64,000 bases of DNA from Cyanidioschyzon merolae (Eukaryota), in NCBI GenBank assembly GCA_000091205.1, contig AP006493.2; one strand, written 5' to 3'. Numbering within the stretch: position 1 is the first letter of the stretch; the number at the start of each line of letters is the position of its first letter. Below the pieces are notes generated by a model. That model was not told where the DNA came from and made no database searches. It saw only the letters and a list, made by a program, of their open reading frames with translations. The position numbers were made by a program, and so were the translations under genes. This document shows, in pieces, positions 1 to 58,950 of the stretch.

Positions 1-1125
1 TCGCCAACGAAGCGGCGACGACGTGCTCACGCAGCCGCGGTAGTGACACCAGAGCCCAAGTCGTCCGTGCGTGCTAAATGGCCGGCTGTCGTTCCAGCGC
101 AACGACGTCTCTGCTTTGAAAGCTCATCTGAATCGAATTCGAGCGAATTCCTCGAAAGCGAAGAAGAAACCGTGACAGAGGAAAGCAGTACCACCTCCAG
201 CGCGGATGTGGCTGGATCCATGACCAGCCCGCTGGTGCGCGCACGCCATACACCGGTGTCTCTGCGTGCCGCACAGCCTTCGAGTGCTCTTTCGAGATCC
301 ACTGCAACCCAACGGGCACGTCAGCGACGCTCCAAGTCAGAGGATGCGTCCGGTGCGACGCTCCAGGGCGAGCATGACAAGATCCAGCGCATTTCCCGAC
401 AGCGGCCCAAGTCAAGCGGGCGCAATCGGGGATCCTCTGCCAACCGGGGAAACAGGGAGCCAGCCGAGCGCGCAACACGATCAACGAACACTCGCGAGGC
501 CTCGCCTAATAAGCGGAATGCCCGCGCAAACACCACGAACGAAATGATTGCAGACGAATCCAGTGCTGTTACCTCGACAGCCAAGTCCATGCGTCGCGGA
601 AGCGCGCAAAAGTCAGAGGCAGCGAAAAAGTCTCCACAACGGACGCGCGGCGCATCGTTATCCGCTATGCCGAAGGCAGATTCCAAGGCCACAGTGTCGT
701 CGCATGAGGAGCACGCCCCAGATTACTGGCAAGCGCAGCGAGAGCGAGCATCCGCCCGTCAGGCGGTATTCTACAATGCACGCTACTGGTCCCAGGCCAA
801 CATGGCAGCATACGTCGCGCGACTGCACACGATTCAGGCACGAACGTATCCGCACCTGAGCGTTTCCCCGTTGCTGCTCACCGGAGCGACACCGCTGAGT
901 GCGTGCTCGGCGTACCCGCAGCATCCGCTGGTGCAGCACCTACCGGCTGAGGCGTGTCGATTCGACCCGCGAGCCTCCGGTCGAACCGTACCATGCGCAG
1001 CATCGGTACCGGTATCGTCGCTGTATGCCGGTCCAATGGCGAATCAGACACTTGCCCAGAGCGTTTCGACCACCGAGAGTGAGTCTGCTGGGTCCATTCC
1101 ATCGGCTGGGATGCGCACGCCATAG
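1..1125 (+). CDS. Partial 3' end of a low-complexity Ser/Arg/Ala-rich hypothetical protein. The frame is open from base 1, so the gene continues upstream of the window.
   Basis: Frame 1 is open from position 1 to a stop at 1123-1125. The track ORF 43..1125 starts at a GTG. Composition is strongly biased (S, R, A, T, E) with no recognisable domain. Confidence 0.3.
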   Translation, partial: SPTKRRRRAHAAAVVTPEPKSSVRAKWPAVVPAQRRLCFESSSESNSSEFLESEEETVTEESSTTSSADVAGSMTSPLVRARHTPVSLRAAQPSSALSRSTATQRARQRRSKSEDASGATLQGEHDKIQRISRQRPKSSGRNRGSSANRGNREPAERATRSTNTREASPNKRNARANTTNEMIADESSAVTSTAKSMRRGSAQKSEAAKKSPQRTRGASLSAMPKADSKATVSSHEEHAPDYWQAQRERASARQAVFYNARYWSQANMAAYVARLHTIQARTYPHLSVSPLLLTGATPLSACSAYPQHPLVQHLPAEACRFDPRASGRTVPCAASVPVSSLYAGPMANQTLAQSVSTTESESAGSIPSAGMRTP

Positions 1126-4100
1126 ACGGGATATAGTGTTGGTGGTGCTGGTGGCGGCAGCGGCAGCCGCATCCACTGCATAGGGCAAGGCGTCCCTGAT
1201 TTTATGCGAGACAGCTAAACATGCTTCCAACAAGACGCAGTCGTGTCGAATCCTGTACTTGCATGGTTGATCACCAGTTGTCCAGGGAAATCGTTCCCAG
1301 TCCATGATCATGGACACCGATCGAGTCGTACGGGATTTCCGTCCCGCAAGCTACGAAAGCGCTGGTCCGGGCGCTTATGGAATGCTTCAGTTCCGTGCCT
1401 CTGATTTTTCTTCAGCGCAAGTTTTCTGCGTTCCTGCATGACGCTCACAATACATACGAAAAGGTTTCCTGGATACATTGACCAACACAGAGACGCTGGA
1501 CGCTCTGGAGGCAAGCAGCATTGGCAGCTGTTGATCGATGCGTTCAGGTCTCACGGGCAGGATGTGCTTGCGCGCTCGGTTGCTGGTGAAAACGCACCAT
1601 AGCGGGCATCTGGACTCTGATGACTTCGCTATCCGATGTTCGATCAGTTTAGGGTTCACCATCTGGTGCAAGCGGCTCTGTTTCATGTGCGTTTTTTCTA
1701 CCAGTTTCAGCATGCACCCGTGCTCGTGACTCATGCATGGACGCCGTCTTGAACGTGTCAAATGGAATCATTGTGCATCGATTCCCTCACTAATAGTATG
1801 CTCTTATCAGAGCAACAGGGGCGCTGCCTCTGAGCGCTAGAGCATCTTCTCTCCCGAGCATCAGCTGTGTTGTCGCATGATGCTTCGATTGAAAAAGCTG
1901 CAGAGGACTATGGACAGCTAGCCGATCTGCGTCTGGGCCTCCTACGAACAGTTGCTTGACGAGGTGTGCCATGAAGAGACGCGCTCAGCGGATCATTCTC
2001 GAGTAAGACGCTGTTCATCCCCTAGTGGCGTCGTGCATCTCATTTTTTGAAAGATTCTCTGTCTTGGTGTGTTTCAGTGTGAGAAACTTGACGATAATTT
2101 AAGACTGAGCTTCCTGGTGCGACGGTTTCCCGTCCTTGCGAATCTGGTCCTCTTTCCGAGAGAATCATTCTCTTCCTTGTCCGTTTTTTTTCGCTTTCTC
2201 CAAGGTCGCCCTCGCGTTTACTTGGCGCAGTGGCATGCGTGTGGACGCTGTTCAAGGCATCCGTTTTTGCTCGTGATGCAGACGCTCTGGGCGGACGTTG
2301 GGGCTGAAGTTTGCCGTTTCTATGTATAGGTACTTGCTATTCCTCAACTAGATTTTCTTCACTGTCTCCATCACGAGTACGCCCAGGAACCGAGGAGCGC
2401 TTTCAGGCCCTCTCCCGCGCACGAGCAAAGCAACGAAACATTCGTTCAGACTGGTGAATGTGGAGAAGGGCTTCGTCGAAGAACGGTATTACGGATGCGA
2501 CCGATTCATCTGTTTATCAATGTGCCCGAACATAGCGTTGGGCAACGACGAAGCCTCCTTCGACTGAATCGAACCAGCGGGAACATGTAGGCAGGGAGTG
2601 CAGCTCTATACCAAAGTCAGCTGCACGCTTCTGGACTGCTTTCACTTGATGGACTGCCACGTTGTCCAGGGGCAAGACAAAAGGATGTGGGAAAGAACAG
2701 ACACAAAGCGACTGGGCAAAGGATGAGATGTTGAATGATCCCGTGTCCGCGTGGCGATTTTGAGGCGACTGTACGATAGAATTGGTGCAAGGGCAGATCT
2801 TTTCCGAATGTTCGCTTCGCTCTTGTTAGAGAATAGGGATTCGTCGCTCAAACACTGAATACCCATATACATATCTATCAATTCTTCCAACAAAATGAAG
2901 CCCCGTCGAATGGAATGAACTTTCGTTGATCACGATGCAAGCGTTCGCGTTGGGTACCAAATCGACCCTGAGTCGTCGATTGCGCAACGGACTCGTTCAC
3001 CAGTGTGCATGTCTTGTTTGCCAATCCCGGTATCTTCATCACCGATTGTATGAACCGTGCGGAAACTTCGCACCATGCGGCTGCTTTGGTGAAATTTTAT
3101 ACAGAAGGTAAGGAGTGAGCTATCCTGACTAGGAGATAGCTGTACGGAGATATAGTTATACAAGTTCTGTTTTCAGCGCGCGACGTTCAGCATAAGGACC
3201 ACCAGACGGGTGGTTCATCCATCTGCTGATCATCATGTCACTGAGATGCACCAGCAAGACCCTAATTACGCTAGCTTGCCGTGGCAGCATCAAGTGCTTC
3301 CGCGACCTGTCTCCAATTTACGCAATATAATCCCGTTGTCGAATGCCTTCGAGAAAAGTAGCAGCGAGCAGAAAGTCTGCACTGGTCGGCGTACTCCAGC
3401 ATGCACTGCTCTAAGTATCACGCCAAAAGCCGTCGGTCTAGAATAGTGGCTGTGTCTCGTGCAGCTCTAGCGCAGTTGGTGCATTGGACCAGGTGCACGT
3501 GCCTCCGTACGCCATATGGAGCGCTGTTCACGTCCTCACAGATACTGCAGCCAGTTTTTGAATGCATCCCCGCACCGAAGCGGTGCAAGTTCAAGCTGAT
3601 AAGCGCACATGGTACCCGCACCCTAAATGTAGGGCTGGCGGGACGCGAGGGCGCAGTTTGTGCGATCCCCGCATACGTGAATAGCGGCTGAGTAACCCGT
3701 TGTTCGCAATGAACGGAAAGATTTCTTGCCAGGTCGCATCGCTTTCTCTACCCATATGGGAATCAAATGGAACAGGTGCACTGAGCAAACTCGGACGTAC
3801 ACTTTAAGGTCGGGCCGTTCCCCAGTGTGGTCAGCACCACAACTTGTGGAGTTTTTTTCAGTGACTGCCTCCATTTCAGCTCTCTTACATCTGGCTTTAA
3901 AGACGGCAGTCTCTTCAGTCAACCTAGCTCCACGATCAGCAGTCGAGGGATGATGCTTGTAGTCTTCGAGTCCTGAGTTTTCTGCTTCCACCAGTAGTCG
4001 ACGCATTTCGTGCACTCGTGGAAGTTGCGATCTACGCTGCGCTTCCTATTTTCATCTTCGTTGTGTGTTCAGCCTCGGTGCGCCCTTCGCAGCGCTGACG

Positions 4101-12500: not shown

Positions 12501-14777
12501 TAGCAGTGAGCACATGGTGTAGCCTGACTTGCCAGGAGCACGCGCGAAGAATATGCATTTCTTGGTGCTCAATAACGGTGAGCGCGACGTCATCGGGAAT
12601 ACCTTGAACCTGGTGAATGCCCTCCGGGATGCGAGAATGTCTGAATCCAAGCCTCGAGCACTCCAGCCGATGCCCCAAAGCGACCACGACGTCGCTCCGC
12701 ATCGTTTAGGCAACCACGGCCGCGGGACGCCCAGCAGCATTGCCTCAAACGACTGTGGTCAGCAAGGGACCCCATGGATCGCTTGAAGGAAATTGAACAC
12801 CTGTCTATGATACTATCATGGCGCTCTTGGAACGTGATCACGCCCCATGATGAGCGCAAGTCCGTTCTCTGGTCATAGAGAGCGCTCGGGCATTCAGGGC
12901 ATTTGGTGAGGCGGTTCGATCCTGAAGCACAAAAATTTGATTCAAGTCACTGTTCACGTGGCCATGGTAAAGCTGTTCTGAGTGCCACAGACCTGGAAAC
13001 TGCATTGCTCTTGGGTCCGCCACGCCTTCAACATACGGGATAATAGCGTTCTGAAGGCGTTGCACAGAATGTCGCTACAGAAGCGGTGTCGCTGGTGCAC
13101 TGGATATGGACAGCGTTTGTGCACGTGAAAGGAGCCTCCTTCGCCTCATCGCTCTCGGGAATGATTTCGGTTCTACAAAGGCAAGAAAAGTGGGTTCACC
13201 AAATTGTTCGGTGAGTTGAAAGAGGACATTACCGATAAGAGTCGTTGTTTGATGGTGTCATATGGCGCTTGAAATGCTGTGGCGCTCGGAGGCTGCACTC
13301 GTGCTTCTTCGAAGAGAGTGTACAATGAGTTGAGGAACCAAGTCTGCGCGATTCCCATCAATGTATTCAGAACGACATTCACGAATCATGAGCATGCATG
13401 CTCCTTGAAACTGGTAGCGAAGAAGAGTGTGAGACAGTGACGGATGCATACGCTGATGTACGGTACGCTGACAGCGCATCGTGTCGTGATGTAATCGAAA
13501 ATGAGGGGTTCTCGACTGTGTTCTTCCAATGGCAATTATGCGCGCGAGCTCTTTCTGTACCCCGACATGAACGCATCGGCCAACAGCCGAAACTGCATCC
13601 TGCTTCAAGGGCATCGTGAGGCCTTATGTCGAGCGAGGATTCGAGTAAATCGTTTACTGCTCAGTGCGGACATGACGCTGAAACGCCGAGGACTTTCGAA
13701 AGATGAAAATTAGCGTTCAGGAAAGCTGAGATTCGATTATCGCTTGGGCAAGGTACAGAATTCGTATGGATTAGCAGTCCAGATTGGCTGGATCGCCATG
13801 TGCATACACTGGGAAAGATTTTCCTGAGTTACGAATGAACGGTAACAGTGTTCACTCACTCGATATTGCGCCGCATGATGATGCGCTCATTACGTACAAA
13901 AATCTAGGGCGGACGCAAGCGCTCAGCGAACGGAAAGGAATCCTCGCCGAGACATAAGAGCCGTCAGCGAGGAAGCATGAGCTAGTTCGAGCCAGAAACG
14001 CCGCTCCGCTGCATCGGATTCGGCGCTTCCTCGAGCCAAAGCCCTCTGTGGTACAGCAGAGCCGTTTTGTCTCCGTGTGACGACCGCACTGGCGCTGTGG
14101 GAGCTATTGCGGACGCTCATGGCAAGCTCTGCACTGGATTGAACGGAACGAGCGACAAGAATATCCGAGAAGAATTATGGCTTATGGAACTTGGTGGTAG
14201 ATGGAATGATAGATGCCTCACCGCGCGCTGGTACCAAGCGCAGAGTCGGGGAATGCTGGCCTGAATCAACGATTCGCCAAATGAAACCAATTTCGATCCC
14301 GCGCGCCGAAGCAGTGTTTCATATCGTACCGTCATGATCTTCCACGATATTCCTTATTCTTCCAACTTCTTGGGCAAACGGTCATCTCACGTACCATGTA
14401 CATTCTTGTATCTATATGAACTAAATGAAAATATTGGACCTGGACAGGAGCAACCCTCAGACAACGCAGTCACTAAACGGTCTCCTTGGTTCAGTGTTCA
14501 CGAGCGTGTGTTCCGCCATAGTCTGGACCTCGACCAAAGAAACCAGCTTGCTGTACTGCAAACTGTGATCGCCGGAACTCCGGAGTTTAACTAGAATCTT
14601 CTGAGCTGCTTTGAGCGGCAAGGTGGAACTGGTATTCACTGCTCACCGAGGCGAGCCTCGGAGCAAGCTTTCGGCAGGCGGCAGGAAATCTGGCGAACTT
14701 CTCAAGGGCTACCAAAAACCCCGGCTGCGTCTGAAAAATCCAGTGAGACGGCGATAAGCGCTACAGCGCACCGTCTC

Positions 14778-33004: not shown

Positions 33005-33634
33005 GGTAGCCAGTCACTGCACCAAACACTTTCGGAGAGATTTTATAAAACTGGTGATTTTACCGAGCTGTACTGAATGCGCACTGTCAGAGAAGCGAAA
33101 CGTTTGCTGTTCTTTGTGGGATAAACAAATACCTTCCCATAGACGCCTCCTAGTCTTTTTTGACCGGTCGCCTGCTACTAGTCTCAGTTTCGCCCTGTGC
33201 ATTTCGATCCTGAGAGGCTGCCCCTTAAAGTTTGCTCGTCTTCAGCACCGCAAATCTCCTGTTATTGATAGCAGCATGGGAGTCCCGGTTCACGAACTCC
33301 GCGTATGCAGCGCTGCTGGTGGACCTCACCAAAACAAGGATTCCTCGAACTCGCGCGTTCTGTGCCACTAAAGTCTCACCATCGCCCCGTTGGCAAACAT
33401 CACTTTCCTTCTGTCTACTTTCTTTTTCGTCTTCTTCTTGCTCACTTGCTCTTCATCGCTCGATGGTTTGCGAGAGGCAAATTTATTTCGTTTTTCCGAC
33501 AGAAGGCGACATCGGGGCTCCAGGATTTTCGACTCCCATGTTCATAACTTTCCCTTGGATTTCCTATTTCTTCAAATCACCACACCAGTTTATGCCCGCC
33601 AGGTGAGGACCTTCACAGAGCAAGAAGGACTTGT

Positions 33635-36849: not shown

Positions 36850-38355
36850 CTATAACCAAGTTGTGGAACAAACTGGTCCAAACACGAAATGGTTTCCCTC
36901 CATCCAACGAAAATAAGAAAACAAAGTTGGCTCAGCGAATCGAAAGCCCCTTTCGCAAACACGGAGTAGATTTATATTCACGCGCAGACGCCTCGCAGCC
37001 TTTATCGACCAGCCACGTGCTGTCGGCCTCAGAGTCTCCTTCTGGACTTCCACCCGGAGAGGCTGCCCCATAAAGTTCGCTCGCGTCAGCGCAGCGGGTC
37101 TCGCCTTCTGCACCGCACATCTGCTGATATTGATGGCAGCATTAAAGTCTTGGTACGCGAACTCCATGCATTTATTACTTCTGGATGAACTCACCAATGC
37201 AAGCAGCTCTCGAACTAGTGCCCTCAGTGCCACTTGCTGCTGTGTCAGTTCTTCATGTTTTTCAATCGCGGATGCGCCCCGCTCGCTCTTCTCCACCTCG
37301 ACTATCTGCATTGTGCATCCCGGCACATCCCTAAGATGTTTTATTTTTGAACATGTACGCATTTCTTCTTGCCTTTAGATGACAACTTTCCCGGAGGCAG
37401 AAGAGCTCGTGGAAGAAAGAGATAATGTGCCCACTGGGACACCATGTGCTTAACGCTTCAGCGATTCGCCCGGTGGAACGATCATTACATTTCAGGATAC
37501 AAAACACTCTTTCGGTTAAGTTGAACCATGGAGCGTACGGAGTAATGAAAGGCGGCTCTACGGCGAGAGACCTGGCAAAGGCTCGAACGGAAGGGCAATT
37601 CTCAAATGCACGGTGTCCAATAGGAGGAGGTCTCCAGATTTCAGGGGAAAAGTCTTCAATGATCCGACGAAGTGGTCGAAGCTGCTGTTTGAGCCTTCTT
37701 TAGACGCCAGAACCGAGGCCACCAATAGTATCTACTGCAGCTAGAACATATGGTGATGTTCTCTTTCGCCTCGAGATCGATTGTATATACAACGGGCTCC
37801 ATGCTCCGCGAATACTCACACATGCTCCGATCGTTTCATTCGAATGACATCTCATCGACTGAAAGAATAAACCGACGTACCTGTGCTTCATACGGCTAGT
37901 GGCGTTCCGGAAAAGCTATTGCTGCGATTTCGGTGGAGGATGGCCGTGCGTGATCTAGGGCGCTGTTTTTGCGACTACATCGCAATGTCTGCAGGACCAC
38001 GCGAGCTCCCCGCTCAGACACAGAGACGCTTGCGGTGGCTACTATTACGCCTTTTTTCTTCCCGTATGAGGGTCAACGGATCGTATTCCATCATTGACTG
38101 GAAGCAGTCTTGGAGAATAACGGTTTTGTCGCGGAACGCATGTACTTGTTTCTTTCTTTCATTGTTCCTCAACGATCTGAGTACTGTTGTATGACTGAAC
38201 TGAGGGGCGAACGCAGTCCTCCTTGCATTGTTAAGCAAAAAATATTCTCTACAAGCAATTTGTGTACAATCTATATGGTACGCTGCGTAGAGATTTGCAT
38301 GTCCTGCTCTACAGTGCGAAGAAGCATTCTATTTTACGCAGCGGGAGTAAAGCAA
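36850..38355 (-). pseudogene. Partial TnpB/Fanzor-like element (copy delta). The C-terminal fragment, including the RuvC-III-like motif, is contiguous with direct-repeat copy 2. Reading is broken across frames.
   Basis: Minus-strand ORF 36850-37362 reads ...KIKHLRDVPGCTMQIVEVEKSERGASAIEKHEELTQQQ...NKCMEFAYQDFNAAINISRCAVQKARPAALTRANFMGQPLRVEV. It aligns with the copies at 42.6 kb, 54.5 kb and 57 kb. Homology to copy gamma continues upstream into 37415-37500 in another frame (ILKCNDRSTGRIAEAL versus IMKCNDRSIGRIARPF at 54400). Confidence 0.55.
37415..38355. repeat. Copy 2 of the 941 bp perfect direct repeat.
   Basis: See 33635-34575. The shared sequence begins gaaagagataatgtgcccactggg. Confidence 0.85.
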
Positions 38356-40940: not shown

Positions 40941-42443
40941 TCAGCTGCTAGGGATTGTGGCGCGACTTTCGCTGACGCGCACTCGTATGATCGAATCGGG
41001 GTACAGCCTTATTGTGTCCCCAGTGTGTAGCGCAGAATTCGGACCGGTCTTTGTGGCCTTCCCCTGCAGTTCTTCCATTACTAAATCCTTGCCATGCCAT
41101 GATTCCACCGTCCCAAACGCTGTCGGATCCGCAGCATACACGTCCACAGGCGTTCGTTGGTAATTTCTGTACACAATCGAGGAGTTCCATATTTCCGCCG
41201 ACCAGCCTCGAACTCGAATCTGGTGCAATTCCGATTCTGTAACGATCGCAAGTCCCGGAAGCATAGCGCGGACTTTTCCGATAAGACGCTCAAAGCACGA
41301 CAGATGTTTTTCGTATTCCTCCAGAGAATACGTAGATCTCATCGCGTTCTGCGCATGCCACATAATGTTGGCAAACTTTGTCGAATTCAGAGTCTTGATA
41401 ATTTCGTTCACAGACTTTTCGCAGTCAAACCCTGGGTAAAATGCATCAAACCGAGGCCGATTCGTGATTACAAGGCCACCATCCATGCGATATACCTTCT
41501 GAACATCTCCGAGGCTGGTGCCGATGAAACCTGCGTACCGCGCGGCATCGGCCAGCCACGGTGTCCACGTATTGTGTGGTGACGAAAGCACCCGAGGCCG
41601 ATACCCCCAAAATGCCCGAAACGAATGCAAACCGCCCTGAATCCACTCGAGAAGATGCTGATGCTCATCGAACCAATCAAATTCAGACCGAAGAGCTATC
41701 TCACTAGAACCGCATACAAGAGAGTGGTTGAAACAAGCCTCCGCTTTGGATCCTGCAATATTTAACTCTCTTAGCCAACGGGACACAGAAAAGTGCGAAC
41801 GACCGTGGTACTCAGGATGCCACAATTCGTTCATATATAGCTTCCTGTAGAGGTCCCGTAGATCGCCTCTGCTGTATGGCGGCCTCGACAGGCCGCCCGC
41901 TGAATCATGCAGCAGGAGCTCGATGTAGCCGCAACGGTCCTGGCGTCCGCTATCCCTGCCGTGGCACGCTACCGCCAGCGGCCGCGAAAGCTTCCTCATC
42001 GCCTCAAAGTCGGGCCCGCCAACGATCCAGTGAGGCGTCAGCACGACTCTCTTTTCGTATGTAACGTCGGCATTTAACCGTTCAAGCAGACTCCCTAGAT
42101 TCTCGAGATCTTCACGGGTCTCGGAAGTCGCCAGTCGGTACCAAAAACCAGCGGGCGCAGTTTGAAGCTCCTCGTGACTAGAAGCGAACGCAATGTCCGG
42201 AAAGATTGGCACAGCGTCCGCCCAGCGTCCCCAGTCATCAGAGGATATTGACAGAAAACAACGCTCTGGCTTGTTCAGAAGCGGCGCTCGCCCGGGACGT
42301 GGCAGATCGAGGGGGTATGGAGGCTTCCCCCGGAAGCGCCAATCCACTCCAAACCGAAAAACTACTTTCAGCAGAGCAAAGACGGCGAGAGCAGCAACAA
42401 GGCGCAGAAAATAAAGATGCACCACCCTGGTGAAAGCAGACAT
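40941..42443 (-). CDS. Type II membrane (signal-anchor) protein with a probable polysaccharide deacetylase (CE4/NodB-like) fold.
   Basis: The N-terminal hydrophobic anchor is LYFLRLVAALAVFALLKVVF. CE4-like motif analogues are SISSDDWG (TFDDG-like), LSRPPY (RxPY-like) and EFDWFDEH (DxxDW-like). ATG at 42443. This is recognition by motif only. Confidence 0.4.
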   Translation of the reverse strand: MSAFTRVVHLYFLRLVAALAVFALLKVVFRFGVDWRFRGKPPYPLDLPRPGRAPLLNKPERCFLSISSDDWGRWADAVPIFPDIAFASSHEELQTAPAGFWYRLATSETREDLENLGSLLERLNADVTYEKRVVLTPHWIVGGPDFEAMRKLSRPLAVACHGRDSGRQDRCGYIELLLHDSAGGLSRPPYSRGDLRDLYRKLYMNELWHPEYHGRSHFSVSRWLRELNIAGSKAEACFNHSLVCGSSEIALRSEFDWFDEHQHLLEWIQGGLHSFRAFWGYRPRVLSSPHNTWTPWLADAARYAGFIGTSLGDVQKVYRMDGGLVITNRPRFDAFYPGFDCEKSVNEIIKTLNSTKFANIMWHAQNAMRSTYSLEEYEKHLSCFERLIGKVRAMLPGLAIVTESELHQIRVRGWSAEIWNSSIVYRNYQRTPVDVYAADPTAFGTVESWHGKDLVMEELQGKATKTGPNSALHTGDTIRLYPDSIIRVRVSESRATIPSS

Positions 42444-42610
42444 AGGTGCCCAACTCTAGAGAGCGTGCTCTCACCCAGGATTCGGGGTTCCAAATGTTTT
42501 CGATTAAAGAACTGAGCGCGTATACGACTGAAATTTAAGAACCGGCCACTCCTGGAAACAAACGCCTTTCGAAAGTCGAACGACGCCAACCGTGTTCAGT
42601 TGTGGCGATC

Positions 42611-44960
42611 TACCTGCCCCAGACAAGATGTTTCCAATTGACGTGCAGACGCCTCCCCGTCTTTTTGGATCGGCCACGCACTACTACTTCCAACTGTTTC
42701 TCATATAGTTCCACTTTGACAGGTTGTCCCATAAAATTCTCTCTTGTCGACTCTGGAGGCCTTCTTTCCATCACCGCACATTTCCTTATATTGATAGCGG
42801 CGTTAAAGTCTCGTTCACAAACTAAATACGTTTCTTGCCATCATTGGCTGTACTTACTAGTGCAAGTGGCCCACGAACTTTCTCCATCCTTTCCATTTGC
42901 TCTTCCGTCAGTGCACCGTTCTTTGCTATTTCCTCAGGGCTCCGCTGACACTTTCCCATCTCAACCCTCTGAAGTGTACAACCCAGCTCGTGGCGTATAT
43001 ACGTTGTTTGAAATTCATCTACAGGTACTGTAACAAAACGCCGTGCACGCTCCTTGTTCACTCTCGTCTTTGGAGCTGGAGTAGTCCCTTTATGGGTCTT
43101 CCAGCGCCCTGCTCCGTATGCTAATACGAGCCTCTGACTTTCATCCTCTTTGAGAGCACTCAACTCATCGAAAAAATTCGCGAACGCCCGCTGCTTCCCA
43201 TTGTATAGATTCATTCGCAAACGAGCCCACCGGCGCTCGGTATACTCCTCCCACAGCGCATCCCAATGCGCAATGCGAACTTCCATGAATTTCCGAAAAG
43301 CGTCAAAGTCCGCTCCTCGGCTCGTCACCTCGCTCAAAGCTTCTAGGTGATCCTTCATTCCTGAATTCCAGCTCTCGATTTTCTTCCTCGCATTCATTAT
43401 ACCCGATTCTCGATAGTATCTCGCTATCGAGAACCTCAGTAGACGCATGTCTTCCCGACGTAAACTACCGTCAGTACCATCTTCCGCACACTTCGGTGCT
43501 GCGATGGTGATGATATTTGTGTTCCCAGCGTCCGCGCCAACGACAAAGTAGTTATGCTGCACTTTCTGTGTCGCTGGATCCGCCTCCTTCTTTTCTTCAT
43601 CCTTCACCGCGTCAAAGACAAGGTCGTTATCCTGCACCTTTTGCATCGCAGGATCCGCTTTTTTTTTTTCTTTTCTTCATGTTTCTTCACGGGCGCAGCC
43701 GAGGGCGGAACTGGACGATCTTTCTTCAACCGCTGATAGTGTACATTCAAGGCTACTCCATCGGTTTCGATCAACCCAGTGAATACCTTTTGTTTGCTGA
43801 CTTTGAGACGTTTGAAAGCGAAGATATTCTTCCAGTACGTCTCACGGGCTTCACCGGAGAACTCCTCCCTGCTAACATTGAACTCTGGACTGATCTCCCT
43901 AATGATGCCATGAAGGATTCTGGAGTCGATACTCACGAAATGTGACTTGAGGTTGCACAACAGAACGCCATTGAAGCGCTACCCCATTAGGACAGCCTCC
44001 CGTCTCTCCCACTCTTCATTTGTCTCTACACTCAGCTTCATTTCCGCCTTGCGTTCGAGCTCTCGGTCCAGAAACACGACATAGCGCAGAATGAGGCGAT
44101 AGTATCTTTCCTTATCTTTTTTCAACTCTGATATCTTTTCTGTTGGATTCGCCAGCCCCAAGACTGTACGGTGCTCTTGTCTAGCCGCACGGATTATAGA
44201 AGCTTCATTCGTGCTCCTGTGTCACTTTTTCTTGTCGACAAATTCGATCTCATCTTCATACTTTCGATCGTTCTTGATGCCACTGATAATCGCCCATTTT
44301 CCTTTGCGAGAGATGCCCGAGTAGAGTGCTAGCACGGCGTGTATCATGAAAAGTTCGAGGTTCACGATCGGTTGGTTCTTCAGATTCGTGAGGTACTTAA
44401 TCGCCCCATAGTCGTAAACATCCGAGTCACCCCTGTATCGGGTACCCTCGAAGCTATAAAAGGCATGTTTTCGTGCAGGGCGTGCACCAGCTCATTTTCC
44501 CTTCGCGCTTCCTCTGTGCCAAGCATCAGGTGACGAATAAAGGTCTTATCGAAAAACTCGTCCGGAATCTCGACCGTTTCCATGTGCGTCACTTCGCGAT
44601 ACACCTCACTCGCCAAATGCATCAGTCCTGACGACGCCTTGACAATACTCTTGGAGTATGACGCAACACGTCTTTCGATAGCGTCTCGCAACTTGTCCCT
44701 GTAGGGATCCTTGATATGTCCAAGAAGAAAGGTTTTCACCACCATCTCGTCGCACAGTTGTCATTCTTGCCGCTTACGACGTAGGGCCTCTCCATTTCGG
44801 TTCTACTTCTCTTCCTTTTCTTCTGGACCTGGTACTGTTTTTTGTTTTCTTCTGGCAGCCAGCGACACTGAGCCTCTAGGATCGTGGACTTGCTCTTCCA
44901 TAACTTTTCTTTTTTTAATTTTTTGAAAAAGAACGCTCTTTTACAGCTTGCGTCACACAC
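42611..44960 (-). mobile_element. Most complete copy (alpha) of a eukaryotic TnpB-like (Fanzor-like, IS200/IS605 OrfB-superfamily) RNA-guided-nuclease element, about 2.3 kb. It is a pseudogene with one in-frame stop and at least two frameshifts.
   Basis: Minus-strand pieces: 44736-44960, 44380-44745, 43979-44161 (ends at an in-frame TAG at 43979-43981), 43604-43960 and 42822-43646. A RuvC-I-like motif reads [15 protein letters not shown], with an earlier echo [14 protein letters not shown] Fanzor-like block reads LVLAYGAGRWKTHKGTTPAPKTRVN...FVTVPVDEFQTTYIRHELGC. After a further frameshift, the RuvC-III motif ERDFNAAINIRKC lies at 42788-42814. The tail ends at the stop at about 42611. Confidence 0.55.
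43556..43692. repeat. Roughly 65-75 bp in-gene tandem duplication inside element copy alpha. It contains an 11-nt T homopolymer (43659-43669) that causes a 1-nt frameshift.
   Basis: Unit A reads ctgcactttctgtgtcgctggatccgcctccttcttttcttcatccttcac. Unit B reads ctgcaccttttgcatcgcaggatccgcttttttttttt cttttcttcatgtttcttcac. Adding one A to the minus-strand A11 run joins ORF 43604-43960 to ORF 42822-43646 in frame. Confidence 0.7.
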
Positions 44961-45618
44961 CGCGAAAATTCACTTGAATGAACTTGCTTGAGGGCTGAAA
45001 CACAATTGAAATGAAAAAGTATTCTTTGCTACAACTTCAATGCAAATGCAACTTGTGTGTTGGAACAACAAGAAAAAGACTGGTTAGGATCGAGTTTCCC
45101 TTCAACGACACCGTGCATGTCGCGTCTCGTGACTGCCTTCTCCCCCAGATGCGCGTATCGAGCGCACCGTATAGGAAGAAAGGCAGAGACTCACGGTTCA
45201 CTATCAACGTTGTAACAGTATCTTCCTCCTCTATGATAAACGTTAAAAGGAGGGCAAATGTTTCCTTATTTTGGAAAGTTTACCATATAGGCGAAAGTTC
45301 CCGCGAGCTGTACGAGTCTGCTGGTGAATGCGGTGTGCGCCGCGCAGTGTACAAAATTCCATGCGCTTCCATGCGCTCAGCTGTGCTAGTAAGTAGAAAA
45401 GTCGTCAGTTACAGAGCACGTGTGTATGCCACTTGCAGATCCTGAAAAGGACAACTTCTTCACATTTTACGTGGGAGATGCAGGTTTAGATCTACTCCAA
45501 GTTATAGATTCTTCAAACCACAGGGTGACGCACCCATTCAATCACAGTCGTGGCTGCGAAAATGCAGCTTAATTGGATGCGATTTCATTGTTGTTCTAGA
45601 GGACTGTAGGCGCGGTGC

Positions 45619-51540: not shown

Positions 51541-52680
51541 TACTTTCCAAATTCGAATATCCAGCTCATTGTCAATGTTGGATCGCGTCAATCAACGGCG
51601 GTCAAAGTGTACGCAGCTGAGAATGGAGTTCTGCTGTTACTTGTGCCAGCATGTGCTCCCCCGCTCGATGCAGTTGAAGGCATCTTCTCTGTTGCCGAAC
51701 GCAGATTTGCGCTCACAGTTAAGCAGAGGAGTCGTTCGCGTCTGCGACAACTTTTGTCGACAAATCACTCTCTACATTTAGCCGCCTTGAACTGCTGTAC
51801 TAGTTGTCTACTCAAGGGAGACAGGTACCGGAAAGCGTGTCCGTCCATAGATACTTTGCGACGGAGATTGCGACGGATATGTGCTTGAGGAAGTTCAAAT
51901 ATATACCTTGAAAAAAGAGGAGGGTTTCAATCGAAATTTGCACACAAAGCATCTTAATCCCAAGTACGGATATGGAGACGGAATACATTGCCCAAATCCA
52001 GGCTATGCCGCCAACAAGAAGAGAAGCCGATGAAGGAAACGTTCTTATTGCGCGAATATGAAGCACGCAAGCGACTTCGTGAAGAGCATATGCCGAGCGC
52101 GTTCATGAATTCTCTTTTACTAGGAGCAAATTGAGAAAAGTTCACAGGCACCATCCCTCCGATGAAAAACAAATCTGCATATATTCTGTGGGAACCAGGT
52201 ATGAGTCGCGAAACGATACACATTAGCATGCATTCAAATTATATGAACAGAGAGATTCTATGGTGCACGTGATTCTAGAGTTGAACCCCGCCATGCCCCT
52301 TGCAATACCCAGGAAATCAAGATGACAGGCTCAAAGACCGTACAGGAACGCAGATGAAGCTGATCAACTTTGCTGGACTCGGTATTATCGTGAATTGAGC
52401 ACTGCGAAGACCAAGAGACCTACCAGCAATAAAAATGACGGCTTCAGGATCCATTTCGACGATCTGAGCAACTCATGGAGGAGAGCGGATTGCCTCGACC
52501 GTTTCATTCAGAAAGTTAGTGAGCGAGCAAATGGCTTCTGCGGACGATCTTGCACAGGCGTTTGAAACACCGCGCTATCTTCGCCCGCGGTGTCAGCATT
52601 ACGAAGGCCAGAAGCGCGCTTACGCCAACTTCTTCGATATTTTGAAAGTAAATGATCACGATGTCGCTTGGTATCATGTT

Positions 52681-53174
52681 AGCCGATGGCGCTGAGCATG
52701 CGCGAACACTCCAATGCTGCTGTCCTGCTCCTTCGACTGGAGCTTACAACTAGTGCGAGAACTGATTCTTCATCATGACCATCGATTTGCTCAGGACGAT
52801 GCACACGCATCCTGAGCACAGGTGCACGCTGAAACAGGCAGAGAAAAAACGCGTGAGATGGAGGCGGATGCATGAGCTTGTGCAGGGTAAGCTTTCCGAG
52901 CATCAGATGTCGATGCAGTCGAGGTTTCGAGGCTCGCTACAGTGTGCTTTCACCACCAACCAAGCGTGCAAGCAGTTTCCGCGTCGAGACTTGAACGCCA
53001 CGATAAACATCTGTAGATTCCTAGAAGTGCGAGCGCGTCCAGCAGATTTGTGTCGAGTGAATGTGTGATGTAGTTGTGTTGTACTCAATGAGCGCATTAC
53101 ATGGAAAGCGGAAGACTTTGGATAATATAGTTTGGTGACTAGGAGAGATTCATTGCATGCACGCCTGAAGCAAC
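52681..53174 (+). repeat. Copy A of a 494 bp inverted repeat (about 99.8% identical to 56835-57328). It contains the 3'-terminal fragment of a TnpB/Fanzor-like gene (copy epsilon).
   Basis: ORF 52775-53068 reads ...HPEHRCTLKQAEKKRVRWRRMHELVQGKLSEHQMSMQS...LQCAFTTNQACKQFPRRDLNATINICRFLEVRARPADLCRVNV. One mismatch to the partner was seen, in the conceptual peptides (SRFRGS versus SWFRGS). The boundaries were located by base-by-base comparison of the reverse complement. Confidence 0.85.
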
Positions 53175-53999: not shown

Positions 54000-54914
54000 C
54001 GTGATCGGTATGAAGCACAGGGAGGTCGGTTGCTTTTTTCGATAGATGAGAATTCCATCGGACGAACCGGTCGGAGCGAACATGCGTATTAACAGAGCAT
54101 GGAGCCCGTTGTATATACAATCGATCTCAAAGAGAACGACGATATAATTTGTTCTAGGCGCAGTGGATACATTTGGTGGCTCTAGTTTTAACTCCCCGAG
54201 AAGGCGCATAAAATCCCTCCCACTTTTTTAAATTATTGAAGACTTTTCCTCGACGCTAGGCGACGTCCTTCTGTTGGCCAACGTAGCGTTTCACCGGTTT
54301 CCTTGTGTTCGAGTTTTGCTGATTCTGTCGGGGTAGAGATGCTTCTAATTCCTCCCTACTCTCAGTAGCAGAACCTCATTGAAGAAATGTTTTTTATCAT
54401 GAAATGTAATGATCGCTCCATTGGACGAATCGCTAGACCATTCAGCACCGTAGCGCCGGGGCATACTTCGTCCTTGTTCCGCAAGTGATTCTCGCTCCAG
54501 GAAGAGATTTAGCTGAGGTCATGAACAAGTGCGTTCATTTTCAAGAAATTGCACCTAAGGAATGAGCTGCGGAGCTCATTTCAAAAGGTCGAGAGGGGGA
54601 GAAGCCAGCAGGGCGCTTCGGAGATAGGAAAGCACAGGGAGCTGACAGGGCAGCAAATGGCAATGAGGGCAAGGGATATAGGAATATTTGCATTGTCGCG
54701 TTCCAGCAACGGCACTGCAAGCATTGAGTTCGTGAACTTAGGCTCCAAAGCCGCCATCAATATCAGACAGTGTGAGGTATTGAAAACGAGACCCGCGGAG
54801 CTGAGGCGAACTTACTTTGTGGGGCGGCCTCTCAGAGAAGAAGTGTACAAGTTGAAGCTCCAGCCGATAGCATTCGGCCGGGCAAAACACTGGAACGCGT
54901 CCGTGCGTGGGTAA
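54000..54914 (+). pseudogene. Partial TnpB/Fanzor-like element copy gamma (C-terminal half, frameshifted).
   Basis: ORF 54549-54914 reads ...GASEIGKHRELTGQQMAMRAR...GSKAAINIRQCEVLKTRPAELRRTYFVGRPLREEV. The upstream 54390-54480 region is homologous to the reverse complement of direct-repeat copy 2, and 54065-54185 is about 80% identical to the reverse complement of 33930-34040. Confidence 0.55.
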
Positions 54915-56834: not shown

Positions 56835-58950
56835 GTTGCTTCAGGCGTGCATGCAATGAATCTCTCCTAGTCACCAAACTATATTATCCAAAGTCTTCCG
56901 CTTTCCATGTAATGCGCTCATTGAGTACAACACAACTACATCACACATTCACTCGACACAAATCTGCTGGACGCGCTCGCACTTCTAGGAATCTACAGAT
57001 GTTTATCGTGGCGTTCAAGTCTCGACGCGGAAACTGCTTGCACGCTTGGTTGGTGGTGAAAGCACACTGTAGCGAGCCTCGAAACCACGACTGCATCGAC
57101 ATCTGATGCTCGGAAAGCTTACCCTGCACAAGCTCATGCATCCGCCTCCATCTCACGCGTTTTTTCTCTGCCTGTTTCAGCGTGCACCTGTGCTCAGGAT
57201 GCGTGTGCATCGTCCTGAGCAAATCGATGGTCATGATGAAGAATCAGTTCTCGCACTAGTTGTAAGCTCCAGTCGAAGGAGCAGGACAGCAGCATTGGAG
57301 TGTTCGCGCATGCTCAGCGCCATCGGCTGCTGCTGTAGGATGCGACTTATCTGTCAGTCGCTTTCCGACTCATGAGATAGACTGGCGAACGCATGCGTCC
57401 CGCCTCCGTACAGCCTGGCCCGCAGGCGGTCCTAACGCGGTCTCGAGTGTTCGTACCGTACTTCGCCCGCATGAGTGATCTAGATACCAATGTACGCGCG
57501 TCATGAGGCGTCGAGGGGTGCTCCCTCTGTTCGATACGGTACTCAGGGCGTCTAGAAGGATCCTCACGCCGCATGCCGCTCGTCAATATGCCTCCTGCGG
57601 TCCATCATGCCCAACTCTCGATGACGCCCAGCCCCCGAACTGCTGAGCAGCCCGATCCGCTTTCCGCTCGGTTCTTTTGGTCGTTTCTTCTCATTCTCAG
57701 GTGCGGCGACCGCGAGGAGGCCCTTCAACGCGGGATCCACACGCATCCCAAAGTGCGCCTCCTGTTCCACTCTATACGAGGGACAATGAGTCTCGCGTGC
57801 CCGACTCAGGCGTAGCCATCGGAAAATCTATGCAGATTGATATTCTGTCGGCCCCCATGGTTCCTCTAAGTTTCTCTCCATTTGCTCCGTGTGGATGAGA
57901 ATTCTTGGACGCGCTCGCCAGACGCTCTTCACAAAGTTGCCTGTGTGCTTCCTATTTGTGCGCAGACACCAGCAGCAGCTCACTGAAAACGCCATACACT
58001 ACCGAGCTGGTTTGCGGTGATATGGTGGCCATGATCTGACTGTTGGGTACCGCATCGAACAGACGCTCAAGGTAACTGGTGCGCTCGGACTCGCGACGGG
58101 ATTCGGCGCTGCTCTGGCGCGCTTCGTTCAGGGACAGGTGCTGGCGTAAGGTACACGGAACGAAGGCATCGCGCTTCCACCATTATTCGGACGCAATGTC
58201 CGTGGGTGCGAATCTGAGAGCTACGCAGTGAGCTCGGACGATCTAGACTCACTATCGCTCTGTTCATGACGTCTCCTACGAACTTGCAGCCAACTCGATG
58301 TCCTCCGACATTGGCGCCCCGTTGGCCTCCATCAACACCCCAAGAAAGCCTGCCACCAATCGTCACTTTTGCGGTCCAGCGAGCGGCTGCCAGATCGCCC
58401 CCGGGATGCGTCTCTTGAAGCGCTCGACGTTGGCCGGCAAGCTGGTTCCGTTTTTGCTTCGCGGTTCGTTTGATGCTTTTCTGTACCAGCGCTGCAGATG
58501 TCCCGATCTTCCACGTCGTGCAGCTACTCGTCAAGGTATTCTGCGAAGCGGGTGAGCAAATCTCTGCTCCTGCAATCAGGCCGCATTCCAGCTCCGGTCC
58601 CGATTATCAGTTGCTTTGCCGTGCATAGGTTCGATCGGAATTTCCAGAGGAATCAGGACAGACGGGAGCCCCGCGACCGAAAGTCGTGCGAGTAGTTGTC
58701 TGAGGGGCTGCGTCAAGCCAAGGCACGCAAGATGAGTCTTGCCCGAAACAAGCTTCGCTTTCCGAATGCCGTCCAGCATCTCGCTTATTGGGGAATACTC
58801 TCCGTTGACGTGTTTCAGTAGGGTGGCCTCGACAATGATTTCAGAGTTTGCTGTCCGCTCGCGAAGATTTTTGGCCGTGTACCTACCCGTTCTTGTTGTG
58901 GAAGGATGTTCCTCTTCTTCGTCGGATGCGCGTTCCGCCTTCTCCATTTC
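56835..58950 (-). mobile_element. Near-full-length but heavily disrupted TnpB/Fanzor-like element copy beta. Its 3'-terminal 494 bp (56835-57328) is inverted-repeat copy B.
   Basis: Minus-strand fragments in N-to-C order. First, 58576-58947 (...LLKHVNGEYSPISEMLDGIRK, aligned with [18 protein letters not shown] of copy alpha). Second, 58067-58534 (GRLSWGVDGGQRGANV, RuvC-I-like). Third, 57370-57567 (RGSTPRRLMTRV, aligned with KGTTPAPKTRV). Last, 56941-57234 (RRDLNATINI). Confidence 0.5.

Follow-up and report, generated by a model that had tools for sequence, protein, structure and literature searches.

The window, a stretch of 64,000 nucleotides (nt) of Cyanidioschyzon merolae DNA (assembly GCA_000091205.1, contig AP006493.2), carries on its minus strand, at positions 42563 to 45321, a copy of CMe-1A, a Fanzor1 family of C. 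merolae described by Bao and Jurka (2013, Mob DNA 4:12, PMC3627910). CMe-1A is reported to comprise about 150 copies, each ~3 kb long, ~80% identical to the consensus and lacking terminal inverted repeats (TIRs), and some of the C. merolae copies are reported to be intact (PMC3627910). The supplement of that paper provides the consensus DNA (3169 bp) and the 734-amino-acid (aa) CMe-1 protein, and its Additional file 1, which gives exon numbers, lists CMe-1 as a single-exon gene (PMC3627910). The element in the window is very probably a dead, neutrally drifting copy of this transposase-less Fanzor1 DNA transposon, its reading frame broken by five nonsense codons and three frameshifts.

The window copy matches positions 494 to 3169 of the 3169-bp consensus, with 83.7% nucleotide identity at consensus positions 494 to 2196 and 86.2% at 2117 to 3169 (blastn), and the CMe-1 protein aligns to it over its full length (residues 1 to 734) with 77.8% amino acid identity (tblastn). 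This agreement is at the level published for CMe-1A copies (~80%), and 71 related loci are 81 to 90% identical to the same consensus. Fanzor1 is the sole gene of the element, which contains no other open reading frame (ORF) with a family match. The disrupted frame occupies positions 42610 to 44901 on the minus strand, from an ATG at 44901 to 44899 to a stop at 42612 to 42610, and spans about 763 codons; an earlier note on this DNA had extended the frame to 44960 and to roughly 780 codons. The element is an ordinary, average member of a family already published in 2013, and its novelty is therefore low.

Homology between the window copy and about 60 other copies breaks off on the 3' side at 42556 to 42563, which is the exact end of the consensus (...GAAAGGCG). 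On the 5' side, homology to other copies stops at either 45165 or 45321; the core common to all subfamilies begins near 45165, and at least three alternative modules lie upstream of it among the copies. The 5' module of the window copy is that of the published consensus, present only from consensus position 494 (window 45321). Absent are bp 1 to 493 of the consensus, part of a TE-N2_CMe-like 5' module, so the element lacks the complete 635-bp 5' end that CMe-1A shares with TE-N2_CMe, a non-autonomous element (PMC3627910). The window copy is thus 5' truncated, which is no bar to its membership in CMe-1A. No TIRs occur at the ends of the window element.

Searches with the stitched translation of the window copy recovered 52 protein clusters, nearly all from JGI metagenomes. 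A Pfam scan and a PDB sequence search with this pseudo-protein returned nothing useful, and only the family profile reached SpuFz1 (8GKH; E = 5e-5), across the RuvC half and with the three motif columns aligned. Since the window copy is broken, the fold comparison was run on P0001, a 752-aa open relative with 70% identity to the stitched translation. The AlphaFold model of P0001 (predicted local distance difference test [pLDDT], 70.6) matches SpuFz, PpFz and GtFz with E values of 9e-16 to 3e-12 (Foldseek), as opposed to only 2e-2 for Fanzor2, and Cas12 proteins also score far worse than Fanzor1. By this model, the family has the fold of the solved Fanzor1 proteins, and what the earlier note had called a Fanzor-like pseudogene is borne out as such by the profile, the structure model and the consensus match together.

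The codons for all three catalytic residues of the split RuvC domain survive in the window copy, with the third motif out of frame; the consensus built from other copies, a check that the earlier note had proposed, retains the same Asp, Glu and Asp. All three lie on the minus strand. The RuvC-I Asp codon (GAC, 43530 to 43532) stands in GADAG (consensus GADPG) and aligns with the Asp of VVIDPNKRD in SpuFz1. The RuvC-II Glu codon (GAA, 43014 to 43016) stands in VPVDEFQTT (consensus VDEFRTS). RuvC-III reads RDFNAAINI (42787 to 42813; consensus NRDFNAAINI), with its Asp codon (GAC) at 42810 to 42808.

The reading frame contains eight lesions. Positions 42300 to 45300 were initially inspected in the three minus-strand frames, and the lesion map itself was drawn from an alignment of the window copy to 37 related copies, read in the frame of an open relative; a tblastn search with the published CMe-1 protein agrees on the total, with five stops and three frame switches. 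The earlier note had listed three interruptions, each of which is present where it was reported, but five more had been missed. In the direction of the gene, all on the minus strand, the lesions are a TAG in place of AAG (Lys) at 44803 to 44805, within the basic N-terminal segment; a TGA in place of AGA (Arg) at 44761 to 44763; a 1-nt deletion at 44468 to 44471 (A4 versus A5 in the consensus); a TGA in place of TCA (Ser) at 44222 to 44224; a TAG in place of AAG (Lys) at 43979 to 43981, across which the frame is unchanged; an A11 homopolymer at 43659 to 43669, two nucleotides longer than the in-frame A9; a TAG in place of GAG (Glu) at 42822 to 42824; and, 9 nt further downstream and just before RuvC-III, a frameshift by loss of a C at 42813 to 42814 (AAC CGA to AA CGA). 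At this last site, the consensus reads GTGAACCGAGAC and the window GTGAACGAGAC. The five nonsense codons and three frameshifts leave no uninterrupted reading frame, and the window copy therefore cannot make Fanzor1 protein.

Two of these lesions bear on further details of the earlier note. Its frameshift ahead of RuvC-III corresponds to the single C lost at 42813, and the motif itself spans 42813 to 42787, one nucleotide away from the interval that had been given. The in-frame TAG at 43981 to 43979, with continuous flanking frames, was described correctly and replaces a consensus Lys codon (AAG). Because homologues are colinear across this TAG and CMe-1 has one exon, the TAG is a genuine point mutation rather than part of an intron; the possibility that it is spliced out, which had been raised as a refutation, fails on this colinearity and on the occurrence of the TAG in all eight sequences of the locus.

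Those eight sequences comprise the window and seven independent metagenome assemblies, in which the whole locus is present and is 99.0 to 99.4% identical to the window across the element. The contigs were fetched via P0053, the cluster representative that is 100% identical to the neighboring lycopene cyclase. In the eight-way alignment, none of the five stops varies, nor does the C deletion (8 of 8 in every case), such that six lesions are fixed. The two remaining lesions, both in A-runs, are polymorphic. The main run has 11 A's in the window, 10 in L003, 9 in five assemblies and 8 in L006; A9 is the in-frame length and gives a 370-aa ORF in the five assemblies. Two assemblies (L003 and L007) carry an extra A that repairs the frameshift at 44471 to 44468 (174-aa ORF). 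The two homopolymer frameshifts are unreliable and the other six lesions are real; the suspicion voiced in the earlier note, that the A11 run shifts the frame and might partly reflect sequencing error, was well placed.

The A11 run lies within a tandem repeat at 43532 to 43672 (minus strand) that forms a Lys/Glu-rich linker just upstream of RuvC-I. Described earlier as a tandem duplication of roughly 70 bp, it is indeed there, as 1.9 units of 75 bp (25 aa). Relatives carry one to six units, with anchor-to-anchor distances of 71, 146, 221, 296, 371 and 446 bp, and because unit number varies in this way among copies, the repeat is a native, copy-number-variable 25-aa unit rather than a lesion. 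Disorder is predicted for the linker (pLDDT < 30 for residues 374 to 471 of P0001 in the AlphaFold model).

The distribution of substitutions differs between those shared among copies and those private to one. Shared variation falls mainly at third codon positions, whereas the substitutions private to single copies are spread evenly over codon positions. Substitutions private to the window copy number 16/14/10 by codon position, with no third-position excess, and this even spread indicates that the window copy is drifting neutrally. For the window copy against the P0001 gene, the ratio of nonsynonymous to synonymous substitution rates (dN/dS) comes to 0.375 overall, with 0.19 for the RuvC third; other pairs give 0.35 to 0.50. 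This is the pattern of a transposon whose active lineages are under purifying selection and in which each insertion then decays neutrally.

The window copy is not unusually young, with eight lesions against a median of six (range, 1 to 12) in 42 near-full-length relatives. About 4.3% of random substitutions in the Fanzor1 gene create a stop, and at that rate the five stops imply several per cent neutral divergence since inactivation. Identity of the window copy to its paralogues is no higher than 80 to 87%, and to the family consensus it is 84 to 86%. The earlier inference of a young pseudogene with few lesions does not survive these figures, nor the fixation of six lesions and the 16/14/10 spread. 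Its expectation of an intact paralogue elsewhere is only weakly supported: no lesion-free copy was found among the 71 related loci, nor is any of the 42 near-full-length relatives free of lesions, yet some intact copies have been reported (PMC3627910). The best copy, L001, which encodes P0001, has no in-frame ATG upstream of Met31, so that translation would miss its basic N-terminal segment. A stop also falls early in the tail of L001, and Q472* is present in the orthologue from another sample.

Three other explanations of the locus can be set against a dead CMe-1A copy. In favor of a gene that is really intact, its interruptions being sequencing or assembly errors, above all in homopolymers, two of the eight lesions lie in A-runs of varying length (A8 to A11 in one run, A4 or A5 in the other), and the main run is in frame, with its 370-aa ORF open, in five assemblies. 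But once both A-runs are repaired, five stops are still there, and neither these stops nor the C deletion at 42813 differ between the window and any of the seven assemblies; the stops are substitutions and the deletion lies in a run of only 2 nt, which is untypical of homopolymer error, and we regard an intact gene as scarcely credible. It is just as hard to credit that a full-length Fanzor1 is made by bypassing the interruptions through introns, recoding readthrough or an altered code. Some eukaryotic Fanzor genes do have introns (Additional file 1, PMC3627910), but CMe-1 is listed there as single-exon, and homologues colinear with the window copy have a sense codon opposite each stop, leaving nothing extra to splice. 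Moreover, the neighboring genes are long standard-code ORFs with ordinary stops, and the substitutions private to the window copy are neutral by codon position, which speaks against any such bypass.

A broken gene might still serve some purpose, and the locus could have been co-opted for a truncated product (a 274- to 370-aa ORF reaching from RuvC-I to RuvC-II) or for a guide-like RNA from its 3' end that aids Fanzor1 made elsewhere. The insertion has been kept in 8 of 8 locus sequences, its 3' end is well preserved, terminal hairpin included, and an intact or nearly intact relative (L001) occurs in the same metagenome sample (3300050362). Set against this, a RuvC fragment without the third catalytic motif cannot cleave DNA, and there is no synonymous excess on the window copy's own branch. 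The density of single-nucleotide polymorphisms (SNPs) is 13/kb in the element, as high as or above that of the flanking genes (2 to 14.5/kb), a comparison that is in itself uninformative on neutrality. On balance, co-option is very unlikely.

The preferred account, of a dead and drifting CMe-1A copy, would start from a transposase-less DNA transposon of about 2.6 to 3.2 kb, with Fanzor1 as its sole gene, in Cyanidioschyzon-type red algae. Its protein would have combined a basic N-terminal segment, REC/WED-like helical domains, the variable linker of 25-aa repeats and a split RuvC whose catalytic residues lie in GADPG (Asp), VDEFRTS (Glu) and NRDFNAAINI (Asp). Homology with SpuFz1 suggests that this ancestral protein would have cleaved DNA as an RNA-guided endonuclease, with a putative guide RNA produced from the element's 3' end and running on into flanking DNA. 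Active lineages would have diverged under purifying selection while inserted copies decayed, the copy in the window gaining its five stops and three frameshifts along the way.

The 3' terminal region suits such a role in some respects. Among copies, the third-position excess is 1.4- to 2.9-fold up to '...NIRKCAVLEK' (through RuvC-III) and only ~1.1- to 1.4-fold thereafter, and codon-position periodicity of variation is lost over the last ~200 nt (42563 to 42760, minus strand), making this stretch a candidate omega-RNA scaffold and right end by analogy with related systems. Three hairpins are possible in these ~200 nt and recur in single-sequence folds, among them a terminal palindrome, CGTCGTTCGA-CTT-TCGAAAGGCG (42563 to 42585, minus strand), which can form 10 pairs, has one mismatch in the window copy and ends at the end of the element. 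A hand-built model of the three hairpins pairs 77% of alignment cells, versus 39 to 56% with the partners slid, and its covariation is not above that of shuffles.

Several results weigh against parts of this account. For the guide RNA, the three 3' hairpins show no covariation beyond shuffles, RNAalifold on a full alignment of 40 copies yields no consensus structure, and the 3' end has no Rfam match, which leaves the guide-RNA part as a weak analogy with SpuFz1 and TnpB; compensatory changes were also sought in the 3' ends of the other remnants in the window, but these are too diverged and their alignment failed. For the nuclease, the zinc-ribbon (TNB) cysteine pairs of SpuFz1 are conserved nowhere in the CMe-1A family (alignment of P0001 to P0051). 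Between RuvC-II and RuvC-III (window 42830 to 43010), the family has THHELGC...EKCQR...LLALVST where SpuFz1 has CPRC...C..C, such that the nuclease activity even of intact members is putative when judged from these alignments. The distant members P0046 and P0048 have yet other residues at this site. For the lesions, the two A-run frameshifts are either slippage polymorphism or assembly error, because run length varies between assemblies.

How the family spreads is a more speculative matter. CMe-1A has no transposase, yet its Fanzor1 gene is under purifying selection (dN/dS of ~0.2 in the RuvC domain), and it is conceivable, though improbable, that after Fanzor1-guided cleavage the element is copied in starting at its 3', guide-proximal end, a route that would amount to homing-like mobility independent of any transposase. 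Five distinct internally truncated metagenome loci (L053, L054/55, L067/69/77, L071 and L078) are all 5' truncated with complete 3' ends, and no internal 3' truncation was found among metagenome loci L013 to L083 after exclusion of copies cut by contig ends. No clear target-site duplication was seen in the flanks, where only three loci, two of them orthologous, have both ends. An affiliation with Replitrons or Helitrons was considered for the right-end hairpin and set aside, as the 3' termini show no CTRR end; Replitron Rep proteins are reported to be absent from red algae (PMC10288648).

The surroundings of insertions have some recurrent features. Flanks of full-length elements are T-rich on both sides. 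The 5' flanks, taken from L025, L033, L043, L049, L056, L063 to L066 and L081, end in ...TTTC in 8 of the 11 listed, some of which are orthologous duplicates, and this is the one hint of a possible target-adjacent motif (TAM); the 3' flanks (window 42551 to 42562 and others) often begin TTTGTT or TTGTTGG. Some copies lie head to tail within ~50 bp of one another; in L043, one element starts 53 nt after another ends.

The locus in the window is flanked by intron-free algal genes. The neighboring lycopene cyclase matches, at 100% identity, a JGI metagenome protein found on many contigs, and it shares 59% identity with that of Cyanidiococcus and 43% with that of Galdieria; we infer that the host is a Cyanidioschyzon-type red alga. 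A 500-aa ORF at 40941 to 42443 (minus strand) adjoins the element downstream and begins ~120 nt beyond its 3' end. Pfam has no match for this ORF, which is conserved throughout the assemblies of the locus. Within the element, thirteen SNPs in 125 bp (43058 to 43182) divide the eight locus sequences into two haplotypes, and in part of this tract the alternative haplotype is nearer to the family consensus. The cluster could reflect ectopic gene conversion between transposon copies, and a search for its source yielded no clear donor copy.

Seven further Fanzor1-derived remnants, with 24 to 55% protein identity to family members, occur in the window, at 1428 to 2128 (minus strand), 13129 to 13686 (plus), 33140 to 33556 (minus), 36943 to 37368 (minus), 52293 to 53062 (plus), 54540 to 54887 (plus) and 56947 to 58836 (minus). 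Most are reduced to the C-terminal (RuvC) portion together with the 3' end. The last of them is much more diverged and spans residues 46 to 660 of a 676-aa relative. The earlier note's description of the copy at 42563 to 45321 as the most complete one thus holds for CMe-1A within the window, but this diverged remnant also covers most of the protein. In a 3'-end alignment, positions 52655 to 53062 (plus) and 56947 to 57333 (minus) are nearly identical over ~230 nt and constitute inverted duplicates ~4 kb apart. Positions 14027 to 14216 (minus strand) show 73% identity to CMe-1A consensus positions 67 to 258, within the 5' module shared with TE-N2_CMe, and stand alone without a Fanzor gene.

The useful yield of this analysis is a corrected lesion map, with eight lesions and not three, and a data set of ~70 related loci. 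Efforts to find an active red-algal Fanzor1 should be based on the consensus or on a copy of the L001 type, not on the locus in the window.

Compared with the published CMe-1A, the window copy shares the 3' end (...GAAAGGCG) and the layout of a single gene with one exon and no TIRs, and its divergence from the consensus is similar to that of published copies. It differs in lacking the first 493 bp of the consensus, in having two 25-aa repeat units instead of one, and in its eight disabling lesions. In addition, the metagenome relatives have at least three distinct 5' modules upstream of the shared core, a feature not in PMC3627910.

Among characterized proteins, the closest counterpart is SpuFz1 of Spizellomyces punctatus (PDB 8GKH, 9CEU to 9CEZ), whose overall fold is the same over the whole chain (Foldseek E of ~1e-15; probability, 1.0); the RuvC motifs align, and the protein likewise stops shortly after RuvC-III. 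Sequence identity, in contrast, is only ~14%, the CxxC...CxxC cysteines of SpuFz1 are replaced by THHELGC...EKCQR in the algal family, with no second cysteine pair, and the algal family has its repeat linker inserted before RuvC-I. TnpB of IS200/IS605 and the Cas12f-like nucleases share the split RuvC with a 'D.NAA.NI' third motif, and further resemblance to Cas12f comes from weak Foldseek matches and from the distant relative P0046, which matches Pfam Cas12f1-like_TNB with E = 1e-4, below the gathering score. Unlike TnpB and Cas12f, the algal protein is much larger, eukaryotic and without an adjacent TnpA, and its sequence and fold matches to them are far weaker than those to Fanzor1.

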